Virus genome (UHGV): UHGV-0140595
Strand: one strand, 5' to 3'
Length of the DNA stretch: 11,245 nucleotides
DNA from: a virus
Part shown: positions 1 through 11,245 of the stretch, one piece after another
Layout of the letters: each line of letters opens with the position of its first letter
Numbering within the stretch: position 1 is the first letter of the stretch
Notes under the pieces: model-generated
Database searches by the model: none
What the model saw: the letters and a program-made list of their open reading frames with translations, nothing else
What the model was told of the DNA's origin: nothing
Program-made: the position numbers and the translations under genes

Positions 1-3000
1 AGGAGACGGGCAGTGCTTTAGTTGCCAACACGGGTGCAGGGACTGATATCGAAGGATACAACAAGCTCTCTCACTTCACTATTACCGGAGGGGAGGCTAA
101 TTATGTTGTGCTGGAAAATACCGGCGAACTGACGGTAGTGGCTAAAACCTCGGCGAAAAATACTACCATTGATACTGGCGGTAAGCTGATTGTCCAGAAG
201 GAGGCTAAAACAGATAGCACCAGACTTAATAATGGCGGCGTTCTGGAGGTTCAGGACGGTGGTGAGGCTAAGCATGTTGAGCAACAATCCGGCGGCGCAT
301 TAATTGCTTCCACGACCTCCGGAACACTTATCGAAGGAACCAACAGTTATGGTGATGCTTTCTACATCAGGAATTCAGAAGCTAAAAATGTAGTGCTGGA
401 AAACGCTGGCTCATTAACAGTCGTCACTGGTTCCCGCGCAGTTGACACGATTATTAATGCCAACGGCAAAATGGATGTTTATGGAAAAGATGTTGGCACT
501 GTACTCAATAGTGCTGGCACCCAAACAATATATGCCAGTGCCACTTCTGATAAAGCAAATATCAAAGGTGGCAAGCAAACGGTATATGGTTTAGCCACTG
601 AAGCAAATATCGAAAGTGGTGAACAAATTGTTGATGGTGGGTCAACAGAGAAAACACACATCAATGGTGGCACGCAAACCGTTCAGAATTATGGTAAGGC
701 AATCAATACCGATATCGTCTCTGGCCTACAACAAATTATGGCAAACGGGACAGCGGAAGGTTCCATTATTAATGGGGGTTCACAGGTAGTTAATGAGGGC
801 GGTCTGGCTGAAAACTCGGTGCTTAATGACGGCGGCACACTCGATGTGCGGGAGAAAGGCAGCGCAACGGGGATACAGCAGAGTAGCCAGGGCGCTTTGG
901 TTGCAACCACCAGGGCGACGCGGGTCACAGGAACACGCGCGGATGGCGTCGCGTTCAGCATCGAGCAGGGTGCGGCGAACAATATCCTGCTGGCAAATGG
1001 CGGCGTGTTAACCGTGGAGTCAGACACCTCTTCTGACAAAACACAGGTCAATATGGGCGGACGGGAGATCGTCAAAACAAAAGCCACTGCGACAGGCACG
1101 ACGCTCACCGGCGGTGAACAAATTGTCGAGGGTGTGGCGAATGAGACAACAATTAACGACGGCGGAATACAAACAGTTTCAGCTAACGGAGAGGCAATAA
1201 AAACAAAGATCAATGAAGGCGGTACGCTGACAGTCAACGATAATGGCAAAGCGACAGATATCGTCCAGAACAGCGGTGCCGCTCTCCAGACGAGCACGGC
1301 TAACGGTATTGAAATCAGCGGTACTCACCAGTACGGTACTTTTTCCATTTCCGGCAATTTAGCGACCAATATGTTGCTGGAAAATGGCGGTAATTTATTG
1401 GTATTAGCAGGTACCGAAGCTCGCGACTCCACGGTTGGCAAGGGTGGGGCAATGCAAAACCTGGGTCAGGACTCCGCCACAAAGGTTAACTCTGGCGGGC
1501 AATATACCCTTGGGCGGTCAAAAGATGAGTTTCAGGCTCTGGCCCGGGCAGAAGATCTCCAGGTCGCTGGCGGTACGGCAATCGTCTACGCAGGTACGCT
1601 GGCGGATGCATCGGTCAGTGGCGCGACAGGAAGCCTGTCGTTAATGACGCCACGGGATAATGTTACGCCAGTTAAACTCGAAGGGGCGGTCCGGATTACC
1701 GATAGCGCGACATTGACTCTGGGAAATGGCGTCGATACCACGCTTGCCGACCTGACGGCTGCCAGCCGGGGCAGTGTCTGGCTTAACAGCAATAATTCCT
1801 GTGCAGGTACCAGCAACTGCGAATATAGAGTAAACAGTTTGCTACTCAACGACGGTGATGTTTATTTGTCAGCACAAACAGCAGCGCCTGCCACAACTAA
1901 CGGTATCTACAATACGCTGACAACCAATGAACTTTCCGGTAGCGGTAATTTCTACCTGCATACCAACGTTGCAGGCTCCCGGGGCGATCAACTGGTCGTC
2001 AACAACAACGCCACTGGTAATTTTAAAATCTTTGTTCAGGATACCGGCGTCAGCCCACAGTCTGACGACGCGATGACGCTGGTGAAAACAGGGGGAGGGG
2101 ATGCTTCGTTTACGCTGGGCAATACCGGCGGTTTCGTTGATCTTGGGACCTATGAGTATGTCCTGAAAAGTGACGGCAACAGCAACTGGAACCTGACCAA
2201 TGATGTCAAACCCAACCCGGACCCCATCCCAAATCCAAAGCCAGACCCAAAACCCGATCCAAAGCCAGACCCAAATCCAAAACCAGACCCTACTCCCGAT
2301 CCAACGCCGACACCCGTTCCGGAGAAACGCATTACGCCTTCTACGGCAGCCGTACTCAATATGGCAGCAACATTACCGTTGGTATTTGATGCTGAGCTAA
2401 ACAGTATTCGCGAGCGGTTGAACATAATGAAAGCGAGTCCACACAACAATAATGTCTGGGGGGCGACGTATAACACCCGTAATAATGTCACCACCGATGC
2501 GGGTGCCGGGTTTGAGCAGACGCTGACCGGAATGACAGTGGGGATCGACAGCCGTAATGATATTCCTGAAGGAATTACCACGCTAGGCGCTTTTATGGGC
2601 TATTCCCATTCACATATCGGTTTTGATCGCGGAGGACATGGCAGTGTGGGCAGTTATTCTCTGGGCGGCTATGCCAGTTGGGAACATGAAAGTGGTTTCT
2701 ATCTGGACGGTGTCGTGAAGCTGAACCGTTTTAAAAGTAACGTAGCAGGTAAAATGAGCAGCGGTGGAGCCGCCAATGGCAGTTACCACAGCAACGGGCT
2801 GGGCGGTCACATTGAAACCGGGATGCGATTTACCGATGGTAACTGGAACCTGACGCCGTATGCATCGTTAACGGGGTTCACCGCTGATAACCCCGAATAT
2901 CATTTATCCAATGGCATGAAATCGAAATCAGTCGATACCCGCAGTATATATCGTGAACTGGGCGCAACGCTGAGTTACAACATGCGTCTGGGGAACGGTA

Positions 3001-3242
3001 TGGAAGTTGAGCCGTGGCTGAAGGCGGCTGTGCGCAAAGAATTTGTCGATGATAACCGGGTGAAAGTGAATAGTGACGGTAATTTCGTCAATTATTTGTC
3101 GGGCAGACGTGGAATATACCAGGCAGGTATTAAAGCCTCATTCAGCAGTACGTTAAGCGGGCATCTTGGGGTGGGGTATAGCCATAGTGCCGGTGTGGAA
3201 TCCCCGTGGAACGCGGTAGCTGGTGTGAACTGGTCGTTCTGA
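1..3242 (+). CDS. AIDA-I/Ag43-type autotransporter adhesin, 5'-truncated at the window edge (repetitive passenger, Pro-rich linker, C-terminal beta-barrel translocator)
   Basis: The reading frame is open from position 3 with no stop, so the GTG at 108 in the ORF track is not the true start. The passenger shows degenerate ~19-20 aa repeats of the form GG.Q.V..G.A...I..GG. A Pro-rich linker PNPDPIPNPKPDPKPDPKPDPNPKPDPTPDPTPTPVP precedes a Gly/Tyr/Ser-rich beta-domain, and the protein ends ...AGVNWSF with the terminal aromatic typical of outer-membrane barrels. Position and orientation relative to the ssrA fragment resemble the ypjA locus of E. coli K-12, but the sequence was not matched. Confidence 0.9.
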   Translation, partial: ETGSALVANTGAGTDIEGYNKLSHFTITGGEANYVVLENTGELTVVAKTSAKNTTIDTGGKLIVQKEAKTDSTRLNNGGVLEVQDGGEAKHVEQQSGGALIASTTSGTLIEGTNSYGDAFYIRNSEAKNVVLENAGSLTVVTGSRAVDTIINANGKMDVYGKDVGTVLNSAGTQTIYASATSDKANIKGGKQTVYGLATEANIESGEQIVDGGSTEKTHINGGTQTVQNYGKAINTDIVSGLQQIMANGTAEGSIINGGSQVVNEGGLAENSVLNDGGTLDVREKGSATGIQQSSQGALVATTRATRVTGTRADGVAFSIEQGAANNILLANGGVLTVESDTSSDKTQVNMGGREIVKTKATATGTTLTGGEQIVEGVANETTINDGGIQTVSANGEAIKTKINEGGTLTVNDNGKATDIVQNSGAALQTSTANGIEISGTHQYGTFSISGNLATNMLLENGGNLLVLAGTEARDSTVGKGGAMQNLGQDSATKVNSGGQYTLGRSKDEFQALARAEDLQVAGGTAIVYAGTLADASVSGATGSLSLMTPRDNVTPVKLEGAVRITDSATLTLGNGVDTTLADLTAASRGSVWLNSNNSCAGTSNCEYRVNSLLLNDGDVYLSAQTAAPATTNGIYNTLTTNELSGSGNFYLHTNVAGSRGDQLVVNNNATGNFKIFVQDTGVSPQSDDAMTLVKTGGGDASFTLGNTGGFVDLGTYEYVLKSDGNSNWNLTNDVKPNPDPIPNPKPDPKPDPKPDPNPKPDPTPDPTPTPVPEKRITPSTAAVLNMAATLPLVFDAELNSIRERLNIMKASPHNNNVWGATYNTRNNVTTDAGAGFEQTLTGMTVGIDSRNDIPEGITTLGAFMGYSHSHIGFDRGGHGSVGSYSLGGYASWEHESGFYLDGVVKLNRFKSNVAGKMSSGGAANGSYHSNGLGGHIETGMRFTDGNWNLTPYASLTGFTADNPEYHLSNGMKSKSVDTRSIYRELGATLSYNMRLGNGMEVEPWLKAAVRKEFVDDNRVKVNSDGNFVNYLSGRRGIYQAGIKASFSSTLSGHLGVGYSHSAGVESPWNAVAGVNWSF
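2208..2322 (+). repeat. Tandem short-period repeat (units like ccagacccaaaNcc) encoding the (P-D/N/T-P-K)n linker of the autotransporter
   Basis: Directly visible reiteration of ccagaccc / ccaaagccagaccc motifs; translated as PDPKPDPKPDPNPKPDPTPDPTP. Confidence 0.6.
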
Positions 3243-3253
3243 CCATCAACGAA

Positions 3254-3275
3254 AAAGCCCACATCTGTGGGCTTT
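3254..3275 (+). terminator. Intrinsic terminator hairpin downstream of the autotransporter gene
   Basis: Perfect inverted repeat aaagcccac-atct-gtgggcttt 12 nt after the stop codon; A-tract on the left and T-tract on the right make it potentially bidirectional. Confidence 0.6.
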
Positions 3276-3402
3276 CATGTTACCAGGAGCCGCGGCTCCT
3301 TTGCGTATCCTTTTATGTCTCCTCACCGTCTGGTCGGTGTTTTGCTGAGACTTCTAACTTCCTGTTTTTGTTGGTGTTGTCCTTACACCGTCCAATCATG
3401 AT

Positions 3403-3446
3403 TGGTGGGCTGGCGGGAGTTGAACCCGCGTCCGAAATTCCTACAT
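3403..3446 (-). other. 44-nt fragment of the 3' end of the tmRNA gene ssrA: prophage attachment-site core (att)
   Basis: The minus strand reads ATGTAGGAATTTCGGACGCGGGTTCAACTCCCGCCAGCCCACCA. From memory this matches the E. coli ssrA 3' terminus (T-arm, acceptor 3' strand, CCA) except for one missing base (CAGC-CCACCA versus CAGCUCCACCA). Similarity to ssrA stops abruptly upstream of ATGTAGG, so it is a partial att copy, not a gene. Confidence 0.8.
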
Positions 3447-3563
3447 ACCATTTTTACACTAACGAAATCATATTTTTTCATTTTAAATCATGATGTTAGT
3501 GTTAATCTGTGTTTGCTTGTTTTACTTGTTTTTAGTGCTCTGCCGCCAAAGTGCCGCCATTTA

Positions 3564-4589
3564 TTAGCGATGCCAGTTGAGGTTATGAAGTGGATTTTTG
3601 GTAACGGCATCTTCCAGATGATCCGGTGCAAAATGGGCATAAATCATGGTCATTTTAATATCAGCGTGCCCTAAAATATCCCTCAATACTAAAATGTTTC
3701 CGCCGTTCATCATAAAGTGGCTGGCGAAAGTGTGGCGCAGAACGTGGGTACATTGACCTTCAGGTAGTTCAATTCCAGCTCGTTTTACCGCACGCTCAAA
3801 AGCCTTTCGGCATGGTGTGAATAACTTTCCTCTGTTTTTGGGTAATTCTTCATACAGTTCCTGAGAAATAGGAACAGTTCGGTTTTTCTTTCCTTTTGTT
3901 TTGGTATAGGTAATTCGATACTTTGATATCTGGTTACCTTGCAGGTTTTCGGCTTCGCTCCATCTTGCCCCGGTTGCCAGACAAATCTTGGCAATCATTA
4001 GCAGACTGGGACTTTGAGATTCAGCACAAGCGTCAAGCAGGCGTTTGATTTCATCAGCAGCAAGGAACGCCAGTTCACCCTCTGCAATTTTGAAAGTTGG
4101 CAGACCGGCGAGAGGGTTGGGTGCAGACCAATGTCCCAGCTTTTTCAGTGTGCCAAAAACTGAGGATAGGTTACGTTGTTCAAGGTTCACCGTTCTGGGC
4201 TTAACTGGTGACATGAGCACACCATCTTCGTTTTTGACCTCACCTTTTAATCTGGCTTCCCGGTATTTTGTGAAATCACCTGCTGTCAATTCAGAAGCGA
4301 TGGGATCGCCAAGCCCATTACAAATGATTTTTAACTTAGCCATTAATCGCTTAGGGTCAGCGAGTGTCTGACCGTACAGGGAATACCATTGCTCAATCAC
4401 TTCTGACAGTTGTCGCCGATCTTCCTTTTCTCCCAGCCAAGGTTTCTTGTTTACCTCGTCCATGGTGAAATTCTCAAACGCAATGGCTTCGCCTTTCGTC
4501 GCAAATTGTTTGCGTACGCGTTTGCCATCTCGCCCGTTTGGGTAGCATTCACATAACCACTTTCCGTTCGGCTGTTTTCTGATGGTCAT
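3564..4589 (-). CDS. int: Phage integrase, tyrosine recombinase of the P2 Int family
   Basis: 341 aa. Blocks CLATGARWSEA, HVLRHTFASHFMMNGGNI and GHADIKMTMIYAHFAP carry the R...HxxR...Y catalytic signature and closely resemble P2 Int as I recall it. Start codon lies 1 nt after the repressor stop (TGA-N1-ATG). Adjacent to att. Confidence 0.95.
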   Translation of the reverse strand: MTIRKQPNGKWLCECYPNGRDGKRVRKQFATKGEAIAFENFTMDEVNKKPWLGEKEDRRQLSEVIEQWYSLYGQTLADPKRLMAKLKIICNGLGDPIASELTAGDFTKYREARLKGEVKNEDGVLMSPVKPRTVNLEQRNLSSVFGTLKKLGHWSAPNPLAGLPTFKIAEGELAFLAADEIKRLLDACAESQSPSLLMIAKICLATGARWSEAENLQGNQISKYRITYTKTKGKKNRTVPISQELYEELPKNRGKLFTPCRKAFERAVKRAGIELPEGQCTHVLRHTFASHFMMNGGNILVLRDILGHADIKMTMIYAHFAPDHLEDAVTKNPLHNLNWHR

Positions 4590-4590
4590 A

Positions 4591-5223
4591 TCAAAGGCTC
4601 TTAATGATTTTCAGTGCGCGGCCTATTACCTTAATGTCATCCAGTTCGCACTTAAACGATGAATCATCCTGATGCACTACTAATCTGTTTCCCGGGAGTC
4701 GTGTCAATTTTACAATGCTTTTTATCCCGTCGATGTCCACTAACCACGTACCATTTACTGGTGGTGTTTGGTTGCGATCTATTAAATAAGAATCACCAGA
4801 AGTAGTCACCAGCAGCAGGTTGCTTGAGTCTGAGGGGAGTATGCTGCTATCAATGATTGCTTTTCCAGCATCGACCAATAAACCACCGTTGAGAGTTGCC
4901 TTTTCAATTTCAGGAGATACAAGCTCAGAAAGAGGTTTAACCTTGCTGGGGTTCACGGAATTGATATTTTTTTTAGGGTCAATGTTTGAACCTGGCTCGC
5001 CCTGTCCGGTGGTTAGCCATAGTAAAGAAACTCCTGTTTCCAAGGCGCACTGAATCACCCATTCTGCGGGAAAGCTATCTCTTAAGTATCTGTTTGCCAT
5101 AGTGCTTTTTGATGCACCTAAGTGATCGCAAAGTTGCTGTCTGGACTTGAAATCATAGGCTGCCATTAGTCTATGGATAGCCTCTCTTCCCCCTGTATTC
5201 TCGCCAGCTTTTACCTGTATCAT
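4591..5223 (-). CDS. cI: CI-type immunity repressor (186 CI-like; N-terminal HTH, C-terminal oligomerisation-type domain)
   Basis: 210 aa. Helix-turn-helix-like segment QQLCDHLGASKSTMANRYLR near the N-terminus. Divergent from the apl-like gene and co-oriented with, and abutting, int, as in the 186 cI-int operon. No clear LexA/lambda-type Ala-Gly cleavage site or GxSM serine motif seen. Confidence 0.8.
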   Translation of the reverse strand: MIQVKAGENTGGREAIHRLMAAYDFKSRQQLCDHLGASKSTMANRYLRDSFPAEWVIQCALETGVSLLWLTTGQGEPGSNIDPKKNINSVNPSKVKPLSELVSPEIEKATLNGGLLVDAGKAIIDSSILPSDSSNLLLVTTSGDSYLIDRNQTPPVNGTWLVDIDGIKSIVKLTRLPGNRLVVHQDDSSFKCELDDIKVIGRALKIIKSL

Positions 5224-5235
5224 TTCTTAATCCTA

Positions 5236-5264
5236 TTGACGTATCAAATATTGGATCGTAGTAT
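5236..5264 (+). promoter_or_regulatory. Candidate rightward lytic promoter (pR-like): -35 TTGACG, 17-bp spacer, -10 TAGTAT
   Basis: TTGACG at 5236-5241 and TAGTAT at 5259-5264, oriented toward the apl-like gene; overlapped by operator-like repeats. Confidence 0.5.
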
Positions 5265-5287
5265 CTCGATGTATCAAATATTGAATC
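5241..5287. promoter_or_regulatory. Two 17-bp direct repeats (gtatcaaatattgRatc) spaced 30 bp apart, each with an internal TCAA-N3-TTGA dyad; candidate operators
   Basis: 5241-5257 gtatcaaatattggatc and 5271-5287 gtatcaaatattgaatc differ at one position. They flank the pR -10, and the second contains the perfect dyad tcaa-ata-ttga. Confidence 0.5.
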
Positions 5288-5332
5288 TAATAAAACAAGA
5301 TAAAACTACATAAACCAAACCTTAATCGAGAG

Positions 5333-5361
5333 ATACTGCACTATGAGCAACGACATTTCAA
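5333..5361 (-). promoter_or_regulatory. Candidate leftward lysogenic promoter (pL-like) convergent with pR: -35 TTGAAA, 17-bp spacer, -10 CAGTAT on the minus strand
   Basis: Minus-strand TTGAAA (plus 5356-5361) and CAGTAT (plus 5333-5338). Predicted start sites of the two promoters are about 55-60 bp apart and face each other, as described for 186 pR/pL. Confidence 0.4.
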
Positions 5362-5591
5362 TTCGTGTACCAAAAGTGATGGCGACACCTGCAGAGTTCG
5401 CGGAATGGGAAGGCCGCTCTCGCGGTTCGGTATATCAAATGATTCATAATGGTAAACTCGCTAAGTTTTTGGAAAGAAAGGAAAAACCGAAAGACAGAGT
5501 ATGTATACGTTACCTTGAGTACAAAAAGGAACAAGTCAGGAAAAACATGGGCCAATCCAATTTCAACTTTAATGTCATCGTTGGTGACTAA
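5343..5591 (+). CDS. apl: Apl/Cox-like excisionase and switch regulator (small HTH DNA-binding protein)
   Basis: 82 aa, first gene of the rightward operon, divergent from cI. Size and position match 186 Apl / P2 Cox. Basic protein with a putative HTH around TPAEFAEWEGRSRGSVYQMIHNG. Confidence 0.7.
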   Translation: MSNDISIRVPKVMATPAEFAEWEGRSRGSVYQMIHNGKLAKFLERKEKPKDRVCIRYLEYKKEQVRKNMGQSNFNFNVIVGD

Positions 5592-5623
5592 GTTCAATTA
5601 TGAGAACTTTCTAAGGTGGCAGC

Positions 5624-6133
5624 ATGTTTGATTACAAAATTTCCAAACATCCGCATTTTGATGAAGCCTGTAGAACTTTTGCACTACGTCACAATATGGC
5701 GAAGCTGGCAGAACGTGCAGGAATGAATGTTCAGACACTGAGAAACAAACTCAACCCAGATCAACCGCATCAGCTCACCGCACCAGAAATCTGGCTGCTT
5801 ACCGATCTGACTGAAGATTCAACGCTGGTAGATGGTTTTCTGGCTCAGATTCACTGCCTGCCATGCGTACCGATTAATGAGGTGGCAAAAGAGAAACTGC
5901 CACATTACGTCATGAGTGCAACCGCAGAGATCGGGCGTGTTGCTGCAGGTGCGGTATCTGGCGATGTAAAAACCAGTGCAGGTCGTCGTGATGCTATCAG
6001 CAGCATTAACTCTGTAACACGACTGATGGCGTTGGCTGCTGTTTCATTGCAGGCCCGTTTACAGGCTAACCCTGCGATGGCGAGTGCAGTTGATACCGTG
6101 ACTGGCCTCGGTGCTTCATTCGGTTTGCTGTGA
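5624..6133 (+). CDS. cII: Phage regulatory protein CII (186 CII / CP76 family), lysogeny-establishment activator
   Basis: 169 aa, the same length as 186 CII. Preceded by RBS AAGGTGG; sits directly after the apl-like gene. The N-terminal region MFDYKISKHPHFDEACR...MAKLAERAGMNVQTLRNKLNP is consistent with this family as I remember it. Confidence 0.8.
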   Translation: MFDYKISKHPHFDEACRTFALRHNMAKLAERAGMNVQTLRNKLNPDQPHQLTAPEIWLLTDLTEDSTLVDGFLAQIHCLPCVPINEVAKEKLPHYVMSATAEIGRVAAGAVSGDVKTSAGRRDAISSINSVTRLMALAAVSLQARLQANPAMASAVDTVTGLGASFGLL

Positions 6134-6140
6134 GGTGCTT

Positions 6141-6341
6141 ATGCTGACGAAAGAACCATCATTTGCATCGCTGCTGGTAAAGCAAAGCCCGGCAATGCAC
6201 TACGGTCACGGCTGGATCATGGGTGAGGATGGAAAACGCTGGCATCCGTGCCGTTCACAAGATGAATTGCTGGCAGAACTATCTACGAAGAAACGGGGGA
6301 ACAAATGGCTATTGAAGGCGCTGAGGCGACTGTTCCATTAA
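6141..6341 (+). CDS. Hypothetical small early protein (position analogous to 186 fil)
   Basis: 66 aa from the first ATG, with GAGGTG upstream overlapping the cII stop. Basic C-terminus. No recognisable motif. Confidence 0.45.
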   Translation: MLTKEPSFASLLVKQSPAMHYGHGWIMGEDGKRWHPCRSQDELLAELSTKKRGNKWLLKALRRLFH

Positions 6342-6646
6342 GCCCCGGTGAACGCCTGAATGGACTTAATCACATTGCGGAGTTAAGGGCGAAAGTTTTT
6401 GGTCTGAATATTGAGTCAGAGCTTGAACGGTTTATTAAAGATATGCGTGATCCACGGGATATTAATAGCGAACAAAATAAACGGGCACTGGCTGCCATAT
6501 TCTTTATGGCAAAAATTCCAGCTGAACGTCATAGCATCAGCATTAATGAGCTGACCACTGACGAAAAGCGGGAGTTGATTAAAGCAATGAATCATTTTCG
6601 TGCAGTGGTGAGCTTATTTCCCAGACGGCTAACCATGCCGAATTAA
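6305..6646 (+). CDS. Hypothetical early protein (position analogous to 186 dhr / P2 orf78-orf81)
   Basis: 113 aa; RBS GGGGGA 4 nt upstream of the ATG; overlaps the preceding ORF by 37 nt in another frame. Confidence 0.55.
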   Translation: MAIEGAEATVPLSPGERLNGLNHIAELRAKVFGLNIESELERFIKDMRDPRDINSEQNKRALAAIFFMAKIPAERHSISINELTTDEKRELIKAMNHFRAVVSLFPRRLTMPN

Positions 6647-6713
6647 CCAACTAATGAAATTAATGGCGTAAACCCGCCAGGCATCCCTTTATCTAAATTC
6701 AGGAGAATTGATT

Positions 6714-6947
6714 ATGCGTAATATTGAAACCCTCACGACCAAAACCGGACCGGATGACGCAGGGCTTAATATTTTACTGACAGAGGCTCGTCTGGAAGAA
6801 CGCCGGGCAAGGGCTGAAGCAATGGCAGCTCGCCTTGATAGCCTGGCGTGTCATATCACATCCCGCCAGCTAAACCACGTCGAAGCGGCAGAACTGCTTC
6901 GTGTGACTGCTGAAGCAATCCAGAACGAAGCGCAGGAGATCCACTAA
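6714..6947 (+). CDS. Hypothetical early protein, predicted alpha-helical
   Basis: 77 aa from the ATG at 6714, with RBS AGGAGA 7 nt upstream (the track's TTG start at 6708 is less likely). Its stop overlaps the traR-like start (TAATG). Confidence 0.6.
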   Translation: MRNIETLTTKTGPDDAGLNILLTEARLEERRARAEAMAARLDSLACHITSRQLNHVEAAELLRVTAEAIQNEAQEIH

Positions 6948-7174
6948 TGGCTGATGCAATGGATCTCGTACAGCAGCGCGTTGAAGAAGAACGCCAGCGT
7001 CATATCCGTGCTGCCCGTGCCAAAACGCCGGGCGTGTCCCGCGTGCTTTGCATTGAGTGTGAAGCGCCAATTCCGCCAGCACGCCGCCGTGCCATTCCGG
7101 GTGTGCAGCTTTGCATTACCTGTCAGGAAATCGCAGAGCTGAAAGGCAAACATTACAACGGAGGTGCTGTATGA
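6947..7174 (+). CDS. TraR/DksA-family C4 zinc-finger protein (P2 orf82 type)
   Basis: 75 aa with CIEC-(N17)-CITC forming a four-cysteine zinc finger near the C-terminus, the TraR/DksA architecture. Translationally coupled on both sides (TAATG upstream, ATGA downstream). Confidence 0.85.
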   Translation: MADAMDLVQQRVEEERQRHIRAARAKTPGVSRVLCIECEAPIPPARRRAIPGVQLCITCQEIAELKGKHYNGGAV

Positions 7175-8028
7175 GCACCATTCTGAAATGGGCGGGAAAT
7201 AAAACTGCCATAATGTCAGAACTGAAAAAACACCTTCCTGCTGGCCCGCGACTGGTTGAACCTTTCGCGGGTTCCTGTGCTGTGATGATGGAGACGGATT
7301 ACCCCAGCTATCTGGTTGCGGATATTAATCCTGATTTAATCAACCTCTATAAAAAGGTTGCCGCTGATTGTGAATCGTTTATATCTCGCGCCAGAGTTTT
7401 ATTTGAGATCGCAAACAGGGAGGTGGCTTATTACAACATAAGGCAGGAGTTTAATTACTCCACTGAAATTACTGATTTCATGAAAGCGGTATATTTCCTG
7501 TATCTCAATCGTCACGGTTACCGTGGTTTATGTCGCTATAACAAGAGCGGGCATTTCAACATTCCCTACGGTAATTATAAAAATCCGTATTTCCCTGAAA
7601 AAGAAATTCGCGCATTTGCAGAAAAAGCCCAGCGGGCAACGTTTATCTGCGCCAGCTTTGATGAAACGCTGGCGATGTTGAAGGCGGGAGATGTGGTGTA
7701 TTGCGATCCGCCGTATGACGGCACGTTTTCCGGTTATCACACTGACGGCTTCACTGAAGATGACCAGTATCACCTGGCATCCGTTCTTGAACATCGGTCA
7801 TCAGAAGGACATCCGGTCATTGTTTCTAACAGTGACACATCCCTGATCCGTTCGCTGTATCGCAATTTTACTCACCACTACATCAAGGCAAAACGCAACA
7901 TCGGTGTGGCAGCTGGCGAGGGTAAATCAGCAACAGAAATCATTGCTGTTTCCGGGCCGCGCTGCTGGGTGGGATTTGATTATTCGCGTGGCGTGGACAG
8001 TTCTGCCGTGTACGGAGTACGTGCATGA
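7171..8028 (+). CDS. dam: DNA adenine methyltransferase, Dam family (probable GATC N6-adenine methyltransferase)
   Basis: 285 aa from the ATG at 7171 with RBS GGAGGT. N-terminal KWAGNK...[10 protein letters not shown] (AdoMet motif I) and DPPY at residues 179-182 (motif IV), in the same order as E. coli Dam. The track start at 7111 would overlap the traR-like gene by 64 nt and is rejected. Confidence 0.9.
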
Positions 8029-10439
8029 GTCATGCCGATATGAACAACTGCTGCGGCTTTAACGAGGCTGCCGCAGCATTCTCATGGAACAGCCCGAAAA
8101 AGGCCATTAACCCTTATCTGGACCCGGCGGAAGTTGCGCCGGTTTCTGCGCTTTCAAACCTGATCACTCTGTACGCTGCCGATAACGAGCAGGAACAACT
8201 GCGCCGCGAGGCACTGAGTGATCAGGTCTGGGAGCGTTATTTCTTTAATGAATCCCGTGATCCTGTCCAGCGCGAAATGGAGCAGGATAAGCTAATTAGC
8301 CGGGCAAAGCTGGCGCATGAGCAGCAGCGTTTTAATCCAGACATGGTCATTCTGGCGGATGTCAACGCCCAGCCTTCCCATATCAGCAAGCCGCTGATGC
8401 AACGTATTAAATACTTCAGCAACCTGGGCAGGCCAAAGGCTTATTCCCGCTATTTGCGTGAGACGATTAAGCCATGCCTGGAACGACTGGAGCATGTACG
8501 CGACAGCCAGCTATCTGCATCTTTTCGTTTTATGGCAAGCCATGAAGGGCTGGACGGTCTGCTGATCCTGCCTGAAATGAGTCAGGATCAGGTGAAACGC
8601 CTGTCCACCCTTGTCGCTGCGCATATGAGCATGTGTCTTGATGCCGCTTGTGGTGATTTGTACGCCTCCGATGATGTTAAGCCGGAAGAAATCCGCAAGA
8701 CATGGGAAAAGGTTGCAGCAGAAACCCTGCGACTGGATGTCATACCGCCTGCGTTTGAGCAACTCCGCCGGAAAAGAAACCGCCGCAAACCTGTGCCCTA
8801 TGAACTCATTCCGGGTTCGCTGGCGCGTATGCTGTGCGCCGACTGGTGGTATCGGAAATTATGGAAGATGCGTTGCGAATGGCGGGAAGAGCAGTTGCGT
8901 GCTGTCTGTCTGGTCAGCAAAAAAGCATCTCCCTATGTCAGCTATGAAGCCGTGATGCATAAACGTGAGCAGCGCCGTAAGTCGCTGGAGTTTTTCCGTT
9001 CTCATGAACTGGTGAACGAAGACGGCGACACGCTGGACATGGAGGATGTGGTAAACGCCAGCAGCAGCAACCCTGCGCATCGCCGCAATGAGATGATGGC
9101 CTGTGTTAAAGGCCTGGAGCTTATCGCGGAAATGCGCGGTGACTGCGCCGTTTTCTACACCATCACCTGTCCGTCACGTTTCCATTCCACGCTAAATAAC
9201 GGCAGGCCCAACCCGACCTGGACAAATGCGACGGTAAGACAAAGCAGTGATTATCTGGTTGGCATGTTTGCTGCATTTCGTAAGGCGATGCACAAAGCCG
9301 GATTGCGCTGGTATGGCGTGCGGGTGGCTGAGCCGCATCATGACGGTACAGTTCACTGGCACCTGTTGTGTTTTATGCGCAAAAAAGATCGCCGCGCCAT
9401 TACTGCTTTGTTGCGTAAGTTTGCCATTCGTGAAGACCGCGAGGAGCTGGGGAATAACACGGGGCCACGCTTTAAGTCTGAGTTGATTAACCCGCGCAAA
9501 GGAACGCCGACAAGCTACATCGCGAAATATATCAGTAAGAACATTGACGGGCGTGGTCTGGCTGGCGAGATCAGCAAGGAAACGGGTAAATCCCTGCGTG
9601 ATAACGCTGAATACGTGAATGCCTGGGCGTCTCTGCATCGTGTTCAGCAATTCCGCTTCTTTGGCATTCCGGGGCGTCAGGCTTACCGTGAACTGCGATT
9701 GCTGGCTGGTCAGGCGGCAAGGCAACAGGGTGACAAAAAAGCAGGTGCGCCGGTACTGGATAACCCGCGCCTTGATGCAATCCTGGCTGCTGCTGATGCT
9801 GGTTGTTTTGCCACCTACATCATGAAGCAGGGCGGCGTACTGGTTCCCCGTAAATATCACCTCATCAGAACTGCTTATGAAATCAACGAAGAGCCGACCG
9901 CCTATGGCGATCACGGCATTCGTATTTATGGCATCTGGTCACCTATTGCAGAGGGCAAGATCTGCACTCATGCCGTGAAGTGGAAAATGGTTCGTAAGGC
10001 CGTTGACGTTCAGGAGGCGGCAGCCGACCAGGGCGCTTGCGCCCCTTGGACTCGTGGCAATAACTGTCCCCTTGCTGAAAATTTGTACCAACAAGGGAAA
10101 GACAAATCAACTGATGGAGATACCAGAACGGATATCACCCGCATGGATGACAAGGAGTTGCACGATTACCTGCACAGTATGAGCAAAAAAGAGCGCCGGG
10201 AACTGGCAGCAAGGTTACGCCTGGTGAAACCGAAACGGCGTAAAGACTACAAACAGCGAATTACAGACCATCAGCGACTGCAGCTCGTGTATGAACTGAA
10301 GTCCAGGGGATTTGATGGCAGCGAGAAAGAGGTCGATTTACTGCTTCGCGGCGGCAGTATTCCGTCAGGAGCAGGCCTACGTATCTTCTATCGGAACCAG
10401 CGTTTGCAGGAAGATGATAAGTGGCGAAACCTGTATTAA
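8025..10439 (+). CDS. Replication initiation endonuclease, P2 gpA-like (HUH rolling-circle initiator)
   Basis: 804 aa. HUH motif VHWHLL (H444-W-H446) and twin-tyrosine motif YIAKYISK (Y498, Y502) in the phiX174 gpA / P2 gpA arrangement. Start overlaps the dam stop (ATGA). Confidence 0.9.
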
Positions 10440-10508
10440 TTACGCGGGTTAACAATTCGTGCTCTTAATAATACCAGGCATATCAGGCTGATGAGCGTAA
10501 AAAAACGT

Positions 10509-10535
10509 TTTACATCAGTAAGATTATTATATACT
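10509..10535 (+). promoter_or_regulatory. Candidate sigma70 promoter for the SOS module (-35 TTTACA, -10 TATACT)
   Basis: TTTACA at 10509-10514 and TATACT at 10530-10535 with a 15-nt spacer. Exact elements are uncertain; the region is extremely AT-rich. Confidence 0.35.
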
Positions 10536-10551
10536 GTAAATATAAACAGTG
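10532..10551. promoter_or_regulatory. LexA operator (SOS box) TACTGT-aaatataa-ACAGTG
   Basis: Exact CTGT-N8-ACAG with a TA-rich spacer at 10534-10549, about 40 bp upstream of the ORF at 10592. A degenerate overlapping second half-site, ACAG at 10561-10564, may form a weak second box. Confidence 0.75.
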
Positions 10552-10591
10552 GTTATATATACAGTATTGCTTTGGTGTCATAGGAGGAAAG

Positions 10592-10780
10592 ATGCAGGAC
10601 TATTTTTTGGAGTCTTTGAAGCTCCAGCGCATTGATTTTTTTCTTAAGCTTGTTGCGGCTAGTGAGTGTAGTGATGAAGAGAAGGGGCTGGCTCTGCAGT
10701 GGGTTTCTGAATTGACTGATGAACTCATGGCAAAAATCAGAAGCCACGAATACAACCGCTCAATGGATGTCATCAGCTGA
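10592..10780 (+). CDS. Hypothetical small acidic protein, first gene of the LexA-controlled module (possible Tum-like antirepressor N-terminal part)
   Basis: 62 aa; strong RBS AGGAGG 4 nt upstream of the ATG; immediately downstream of the SOS box. Confidence 0.6.
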   Translation: MQDYFLESLKLQRIDFFLKLVAASECSDEEKGLALQWVSELTDELMAKIRSHEYNRSMDVIS

Positions 10781-10790
10781 GGTGACTTTT

Positions 10791-11024
10791 ATGCGCATTG
10801 AAATAATGATCGATAAAGAGCAGAAGATTAGCCAGTCTACCCTGGACGCCCTTGAATCCGAGCTTTACCGCAATCTGCGCCCCCTGTATCCCAAAACGGT
10901 AATCCGTATCCGTAAAGGTAGCTCTAACGGTGTGGAACTGACCGGACTGCAACTGGACGAAGAAAGAAAACAAGTGATGAAAATTATGCAGAAGGTGTGG
11001 GAAGACGACAGCTGGCTGCATTGA
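10791..11024 (+). CDS. dinI: DinI-family protein (DNA-damage-inducible protein I-like)
   Basis: 77 aa, MRIEIMIDK...LDALESEL...DEERKQVMKIMQKVWEDDSWLH, which aligns along its length with E. coli DinI (MRIEVTIAK...IDALAGEL...KEDKQRISEILQETWESADDWF) as I recall it. RBS GAGGTG overlaps the upstream stop. The longer track start at 10719 is rejected. Confidence 0.8.
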   Translation: MRIEIMIDKEQKISQSTLDALESELYRNLRPLYPKTVIRIRKGSSNGVELTGLQLDEERKQVMKIMQKVWEDDSWLH

Positions 11025-11079
11025 TTTTGTCAATAGACGCTTGTTTTTACTAATCAAAAAGGGTTACATATGAGTGAGA

Positions 11080-11111
11080 GGCGATGTCAATCAGATATCG
11101 CCTTGTTTTTT
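11080..11111 (+). terminator. Rho-independent terminator after the dinI-like gene
   Basis: Stem ggcgat / atcgcc with an 11-nt loop, followed by ttgttttttg. Confidence 0.6.
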
Positions 11112-11245
11112 GTCAAGAAAAGAATAATAGGCTAAAAATGAAAATTAATAATGTAGCGTTACCAATATCTCTTGCTGTAATCCTAACTGGTTGGTAATGC
11201 TGCCAACTTACTGATTTAGTGTATGATGGTGATTTTAAGGTGCTT

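Follow-up and report, generated by a model that had tools for sequence, protein, structure and literature searches.

What lies immediately downstream of the replication gene A of this P2-family prophage: newly acquired cargo, or something that belongs to the phage itself? The window, i.e., the whole stretch of DNA analysed (11,245 nt), includes gene A up to its TAA stop codon at 10437-10439, and the region under study extends from there to the end of the window (10440-11245). The interval between gene A and the portal gene Q is a published defence hotspot of the P2 family (Rousset et al. 2022, PMC9122126). As the sequence-only reading had noticed, base composition drops past the gene A stop: the G+C content, 0.53 in gene A, is 0.405 in 10440-11192, and 4 of the 11 A/T runs of at least 6 nt found in the window are located in this latter segment. 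That reading took everything from 10440 on for horizontally acquired cargo and placed anything larger than a 19-codon ORF past 11245. In fact, two complete genes, a predicted double LexA operator and the end of an IS1 are all found inside the region.

Very probably, 10440-11245 consists of the SOS operon of a prophage of the Fels-2/186 type, followed by a terminator, the start of the cargo and a lipoprotein gene cut by IS1. The region is ordinary and largely explained already, this SOS operon being a known system. The outcome is mainly a correction of annotation: what could be taken for new defence cargo and for a new small membrane protein is, respectively, a regulatory operon that is conserved and a pseudo-ORF created by an IS.

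The segment between gene A and the end of tumB

The elements found from gene A to the end of tumB are the following.

8025-10439, + strand: replication gene A (gpA, 804 aa), left anchor of the gpA-gpQ interval (Pfam Phage_GPA, 1.7e-127)
10449-10466, + strand: conserved 18-mer TTANCAATTCNNGCTCTT right after the gene A stop, invariant in five relatives
10509-10537, + strand: predicted tum promoter (equivalent of p95 of phage 186), with a -35 TTTACA at 10509-10514, assigned by analogy
10532-10566, no strand assigned: double overlapping predicted LexA (SOS) operator, made of box 1 and box 2
10592-10780, + strand: tumA (tum), 62-aa antirepressor, identical to WP_001154431.1 of E. coli HS
10791-11024, + strand: tumB, 77-aa protein of the DinI family (RecA-filament modulator), matching Pfam DinI (PF06183) over its full length (6.6e-23)

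The homologues of gene A in the relatives are annotated as replication endonucleases. The 18-mer that follows it is shared by five relatives, among which are diverged phages of Yersinia and Klebsiella, and is absent from 186 and PSP3.

The first complete gene, tumA, is preceded by a Shine-Dalgarno sequence (AGGAGG, 10582-10587). Its product belongs to phrog_698 (5.9e-38) and also matches phrog_8554; the N-terminus of phage 186's Tum protein matches both profiles too (2.4e-5 and 1.4e-11, respectively). Pairwise BLAST detected no similarity of TumA to 186 Tum or to PSP3 TumA. Joined to the position of the gene, the PHROG profiles suggest that TumA is homologous to 186 Tum, which binds CI and prevents it from binding its operators (cited in PMC3121763). 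The antirepressor function of tumA is supported by the identical protein of E. coli HS, whose deletion blocks induction. The delta-tum allele of the P2-like prophage of this strain was obtained in the Phollow study with primers joining the ATG to the TGA (PMC11195241), and the mutant does not lyse after mitomycin C, its induction being abolished (PMC11195241). These primers join precisely the ATG (10592) of the tumA of the window to its TGA: a single mismatch separates NHR24 from 10572-10594, and NHR28 is an exact match to 10778-10800 over its genomic part (23 nt). The prophage retains an intact and experimentally validated SOS-induction module.

The second gene, tumB, encodes a protein related to DinI (2.7e-6 with PDB 1GHH) that shares 78% identity with PSP3 TumB and 41% identity with the C-terminal half of 186 Tum. 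A DinI-like domain is present after the antirepressor part, as in the 186-type operon. In Fels-2 and PSP3, two genes correspond to the tum gene of 186, the upstream one encoding the antirepressor and the downstream one being homologous to dinI (Lemire et al., PMC3121763). Furthermore, in Salmonella TA100 (Fels-2+), STM2726, STM2727 and STM2728 are all induced by the mutagen MX (2.6- to 14.8-fold, p <=0.01), and STM2727 was placed with the LexA regulon (PMC2225428). Gene order suggests that these three genes correspond to those of the window; their induction in the MX microarray could alternatively reflect the replication of the prophage.

Upstream of tumA, sequence comparison reveals a LexA box overlapping the promoter directly downstream of gene A, as a 186-type SOS operon requires. 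Two candidate -10 hexamers face the -35 of the predicted promoter, TATACT (10530-10535, 15-nt spacer) and TACTGT (10532-10537, 17-nt spacer), the second arrangement being the one annotated for p95 of 186. A scan restricted to spacers of 16-18 nt missed TATACT, whose spacer is only 15 nt. Box 1 (10532-10551, TACTGTAAATATAAACAGTG) includes a perfect CTGT-N8-ACAG at 10534-10549, the sole one of the window, whereas the left half-site of box 2 (10547-10566, CAGTGGTTATATATACAGTA) is degenerate (GTGG). With 17/20 and 16/20 matches to the 20-nt LexA consensus, they are the two best candidates of the window, the next one reaching 13/20. Both boxes form an 18-nt inverted repeat (10531-10548/10550-10567), and their cores, 10534-10549 and 10549-10564, have G10549 in common. 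In Yersinia phage MLG42 and Klebsiella phage phi4.1, despite diverged flanks, there is no change in the -35 TTTACA, in the -10 TATACTGT or in the core bases of the two boxes. These data are consistent with both putative boxes being occupied by LexA.

A canonical second LexA box with an N8 spacing, starting from CAGT at 10547, was also considered and dropped; the right register is GTGG-N8-ACAG at 10549-10564, which is degenerate and overlaps box 1.

The target of the antirepressor would be carried by the same prophage. Matches to repressor PHROGs assign cI to 4591-5223, and apl-like, cII and fil genes are annotated in the 99.9%-identical prophage of E. coli 23CRST047, which points to a cognate, putatively non-cleavable CI repressor of the 186 type with its apl/cII switch. 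The induction could thus proceed as follows. In the lysogen, the host LexA would sit on the two overlapping SOS boxes and cover the -10 and the start region of the tum promoter. After DNA damage, self-cleavage of LexA would allow transcription of tumA-tumB; TumA (62 aa) would then bind the CI repressor and block its binding to its operators, leading to lytic growth. The DinI-like TumB would modulate RecA filaments and thus tune induction. The lipoprotein gene located further downstream would probably be reached by partial read-through of a terminator, like orf97 in phage 186. Lastly, an insertion of IS1 at the lipobox cysteine codon of this gene has inactivated it and created the apparent 19-codon ORF (see below).

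Terminator and start of the variable part

11078-11111, + strand: intrinsic terminator after tumB (positional counterpart of t95a of 186), with an 11-bp stem (11078-11104) and a T-run to 11111

The terminator that had been proposed at 11080-11111 is real, its centroid structure having an energy of -16.6 kcal/mol and a z-score of -3.07 relative to shuffled sequences. It looks strong, and co-transcription of the lipoprotein gene with the operon is therefore uncertain. The search for known RNA families in 10300-11245 yielded a single sub-threshold chance match and nothing else.

Homology among relatives breaks at 11024/11025, exactly at the tumB stop. Downstream of it, three groups cannot be aligned with each other (window/Fels-2; MLG42/phi4.1/PSP3; 186), each of them having its own hairpin. 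The genes that follow tumB differ among 23CRST047, Fels-2, E. coli HS, Klebsiella phi4.1, Yersinia MLG42 and ESSI2. In the same way, phage records include 116 with the tumB-type DinI gene, 66 with this type of tumA and 33 with the lipoprotein gene. Since 10440-11024 is conserved where downstream genes differ and since homology breaks at the tumB stop, the variable region starts at 11025 and not at 10440. The true variable slot of the prophage begins at the tumB stop, and only 168 bp of it, up to IS1, are included in the window.

Several features could have suggested that all the sequence from 10440 on is horizontally acquired variable (defence) cargo: its low G+C, the published status of the gpA-gpQ interval (PMC9122126) and the genes encoding GmrSD-like proteins or AbiU that relatives hold in this interval. 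However, 10440-11024, including promoter and operator, is conserved in relatives with quite different downstream genes. The pair made of tumA and the DinI gene recurs with many cargos: WP_001154431 (Tum) and WP_001217575 (DinI-like) are found in Table S5A of PMC9122126 with RVT_1, AIPR, DUF262/DUF1524 or KAP_NTPase cargos. PADLOC assigns no defence family to TumA, TumB or the lipoprotein, HEC-06/GmrSD and AbiU being detected only in genes of the relatives located past the end of the window. Furthermore, Tum is required for induction (PMC11195241). The cargo explanation is very improbable for the region as a whole and is already contradicted for 10440-11024, which is a conserved SOS-induction operon.

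The low G+C of this operon has another origin. G+C reaches 0.33 in both intergenic stretches, 0.44 in tumA and 0.48 in tumB. The segment 10440-11192 is among the lowest 1.8% of the 753-nt windows of the sequence, and the only equally low ones belong to the cI/apl switch. The composition of 10440-11024 is due to an A/T-rich promoter-operator and to small regulatory genes, like that of the cI/apl region of the same prophage.

The proposal of a hotspot after gene A holds for the gpA-gpQ locus, as the GmrSD-like and AbiU genes of relatives indicate, but the hotspot itself lies beyond the window. The closest relative illustrates its content. E. coli 23CRST047 (NZ_AP045820.1) matches positions 1-11193 with 99.94-100% identity, and 4 mismatches are found over 6,754 nt on the prophage side. 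In this strain, the lipoprotein gene is intact, and downstream of it come a gene encoding a 593-aa GmrSD_N/GmrSD_C protein (PADLOC HEC-06, 7.9e-73), then the portal gene Q, located 2.9 kb past the tumB stop, and the terminase gene P. The slot after the lipoprotein gene is occupied by AbiU in Fels-2 (PADLOC, 2.7e-112) and by the gene of an unrelated 463-aa protein in E. coli HS. By analogy with 23CRST047, the remainder of the lipoprotein gene, then the GmrSD-like gene and Q, are probably located past IS1.

The truncated lipoprotein gene and the IS1 end

11138-11192, + strand: first 18 codons (signal peptide) of a 225-aa prophage lipoprotein gene, truncated (WP_000700647.1, phrog_1353)
11193-11245, + strand: left terminal inverted repeat and 5' end of IS1, 53 nt identical to a copy annotated as an IS1 family transposase

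The hydrophobic 19-codon ORF that had attracted attention does exist (11138-11197, encoding MKINNVALPISLAVILTGW*), but it is not a free-standing gene, its TGG TAA end being supplied by IS1. Its ATG is that of a gene of 225 aa in every intact relative examined, namely 23CRST047, Fels-2 and E. coli HS; what is conserved is this long ORF and not the 19-aa one, for which conservation had been proposed as a check. At least 50 E. coli genomes carry the colinear region, and so do 28 phage records. The intact lipoprotein starts with MKINNVALPISLAVILTG-C, i.e., a signal peptide with a lipobox LTGC, followed by VPH. Its Gly18-Cys19 and two further cysteines are invariant across 21 homologues. In the window, the TGC codon of the lipobox cysteine is replaced by TGG TAA from IS1. 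As this cysteine codon is lost to IS1, the copy of the window is a pseudogene, and as IS1 gives the last sense codon and the stop (TAA, 11195-11197), the 19-codon ORF is no gene but the result of a truncation.

It is barely credible that this ORF truly encodes a small hydrophobic membrane peptide, or a leader peptide, from a promoter of its own. Such a view could invoke an open frame with an ATG, a hydrophobic sequence and a promoter-like match (9/12) upstream, made of the TTGTCA at 11110-11115 and of AAAAAT (11134-11139) as its -10 partner. All this must be set against the 225-aa ORF opened by the same ATG in intact relatives, the origin of the last codon and of the stop in the IS1 inverted repeat, and the lack of the lipobox cysteine needed for processing. 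The TTGTCA is indeed present, but it was rejected as a promoter of the ORF: its -10 overlaps the ATG at 11138, so that a transcript starting from it would be unable to encode the ORF, and promoter-like matches occur at chance level (2 found, 2.1 expected).

The truncated gene is the start of an accessory lipoprotein gene of this prophage knocked out by IS1. The terminal repeat of IS1 is GGTAATGCTGCCAACTTACTGAT..., and the next 30 nt are also identical to annotated IS1 copies. Among 5,426 complete E. coli genomes, 4,958 contain the segment 11193-11245, with about 72,000 occurrences in all. In an identical copy, the transposase CDS starts 3 nt after the matched segment; insA is thus predicted to begin about 3 nt past the end of the window, reading rightwards. 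Colinearity with the intact prophage stops at 11193, where ...ACTGGTTGCGTGCC... of the intact prophage becomes ...ACTGGTTGGTAATGCTGCCAACTTACTGAT... in the window; an IS1-free sequence across 11150-11300 would continue with ...ACTGGTTGCGTGCCACATG....

An artefact of assembly could also give this picture, a contig end collapsed into a repeat while the lipoprotein gene is really intact. The window stops just 53 nt into a high-copy repeat, and the exact phage-IS1 junction (35-46-mers) has no match in GTDB representatives, IMG/VR, JGI metagenome contigs or, implicitly, the 5,426 complete E. coli genomes. However, the join coincides with the very start of the terminal repeat of IS1 and the shared sequence does not exceed 1 nt, which is the pattern of a transposition and not that of a repeat-mediated chimera. 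IS1 favours A/T-rich targets, and the target at the junction is A/T-rich (31% G+C). Because the join falls exactly at the IS1 terminus, with an ambiguity of at most 1 nt, a real transposition is favoured over a chimeric assembly, and the artefact is quite unlikely. It should be added that a rearrangement or a deletion beyond IS1 is possible, the right end and the target duplication lying outside the window. As the sequence breaks in a repeat, recovery of the right-hand cargo needs long reads.

No Pfam, NCBIfam or PADLOC family matches the lipoprotein. Its AlphaFold model is all-beta (pLDDT 79.8), and no convincing fold neighbour was found for this model in the PDB or BFVD. Homologues sharing 55-60% identity are located in mobile islands unrelated to P2, beside genes encoding AbiC-like, resolvase, OLD-family and MobA proteins. 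The gene behaves as a free accessory gene, and a role in exclusion or defence is a guess.

Homology of the lipoprotein to Orf97 of phage 186 was considered and rejected, the two proteins sharing no similarity (E = 3.8).

Comparison with known systems

The organization of the region is very similar to that of phage 186, whose annotation places p95, the LexA box, tum, t95a, orf97 and t95b in this order, t95a being a partial terminator followed by orf97. In both cases, the operon comes straight after gene A and has a LexA-repressed promoter (predicted in the window) whose -10 overlaps a LexA box, the -10 of 186 (TACTGT) corresponding to the first 6 nt of its box; an antirepressor part is followed by a DinI-like domain, a terminator and one accessory gene. 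However, Tum is a single 146-aa fusion in 186, whereas tumA (62 aa) and tumB (77 aa) are separate here, and TumA is related to 186 Tum at the profile level only. Furthermore, 186 has a single LexA box, as does PSP3, whereas two overlapping boxes are predicted here, and the third gene of the window, which encodes the lipoprotein, is unrelated to that of Orf97.

The split tum architecture is shared with Fels-2, PSP3 and the prophage of E. coli HS. In Fels-2, TumB is the same as in the window, TumA has 2 different residues out of 62 and identity reaches 97.6% at the DNA level. In E. coli HS, where tum is required for induction by mitomycin C, TumA and TumB are both identical to those of the window. 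What sets the window apart is only the insertion of IS1 in the lipoprotein gene, and the cargo that follows the lipoprotein gene differs between these phages.

The region after gene A would also belong to the same interval as the gpA-gpQ hotspot (old/tin in P2), which is highly variable in relatives and includes recognised defence genes there. A difference is that a conserved tum operon comes first in members of the 186/Fels-2 type; furthermore, the window contains neither a defence gene nor gpQ. As for IS1, it is represented by its first 53 nt alone, its transposase genes, right end and target duplication being located past the window.

Another likeness concerns operons of the ColE1 type. Both have two LexA boxes (predicted in the window) whose 16-nt cores overlap by one base, and the inner half-site (CAG|TGG) departs from the consensus in the same way. 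However, the operator of the window would govern a phage antirepressor and not a toxin, and the position of the -35 differs. Two LexA dimers reportedly bind colicin genes, which gives tight repression (PMC2994835). By analogy, it is reasonable to suppose that tum is under a similarly tight control in the Fels-2 group, and the colicin-like double LexA operator may explain the tight repression of induction in this phage group.

It could also be imagined that the lipoprotein is an exclusion or defence factor co-induced with the SOS operon and that the tum promoter-operator is a cassette shared by descent with colicin E1 plasmids; this combined proposal is speculative and rather unlikely. If it were true for the lipoprotein, the loss of the gene through IS1 would here be a selected event. 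If it were true for the descent, the phage group would gain a tight and heterogeneous induction similar to that of colicins.

Lastly, 48 nt of the tum operator-promoter have a counterpart, with 84-88% identity, on about 860 small Col-type plasmids. On the plasmid with a listed colicin gene, this counterpart is located 37 nt upstream of a gene of the colicin E1 type.

Cargo between the lipoprotein gene and Q in relatives

Among the relatives, the slot between the gene of the 225-aa lipoprotein and the portal gene Q holds the following genes.

L001 (E. coli 23CRST047 prophage locus), 7663-9444: GmrSD/HEC-06-like gene
L002 (Fels-2), 7644-9341: AbiU
L006 (E. coli HS), 6664-8055: gene of a 463-aa protein

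The E. coli HS protein has no family match and displays just weak coiled-coil/SMC-like similarities. In the Klebsiella phage ST437-OXA245phi4.1 (L008, 5030-7684), three reverse-strand hypothetical genes, encoding 227, 359 and 301 aa, follow tumB and stand in place of the lipoprotein and defence genes. They possibly constitute an uncharacterised three-gene system in the gpA-gpQ hotspot.

The lipoprotein gene itself may often be truncated or mis-started. Several database clusters (homologues P0004, P0006 and P0007) are 99-100% identical to the lipoprotein yet shorter (155-205 aa); one of the shortened clusters includes 52 member sequences and takes its name from a Salmonella record.

Sequences between gene A and tumB

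An 18-mer is found directly 3' of the gene A stop codon.

10449-10466: TTANCAATTCNNGCTCTT

Five relatives, among them diverged phages of Yersinia and Klebsiella, have it unchanged, and it is not present in 186 or PSP3. These two phages also carry a single LexA box each, whereas the tum operator of the window has two. About 860 small Col plasmids carry a segment that shares 84-88% identity over 48 nt with the tum promoter-operator (10526-10573); on pF2_18C_Col, a colicin E1-type gene follows this segment at a distance of 37 nt. The tum operator and the plasmid segment have in common an inner half-site that departs from the consensus, as well as a portion of the 5' leader.

At the tumA-tumB junction, a 6-bp hairpin followed by TTTTAT (10769-10786) spans the tumA stop codon and the tumB Shine-Dalgarno sequence. 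This hairpin might couple or limit tumB translation.

Borders of the window

On its left side, the window begins within a gene for an AIDA/pertactin-type autotransporter (1-3242), which is labelled ypjA/ehaD in the identical stretch of E. coli 23CRST047. The integrase gene follows the autotransporter gene at a distance of about 320 bp.

3564-4589: prophage integrase

Since the window starts in this repeat-rich gene and ends in IS1, its limits suggest a short-read contig bordered by repeats. Within the left inverted repeat of IS1, a promoter-like match (CTGCCA-16-TATGAT, 11200-11227) falls at the site of the IS1 insA promoter.
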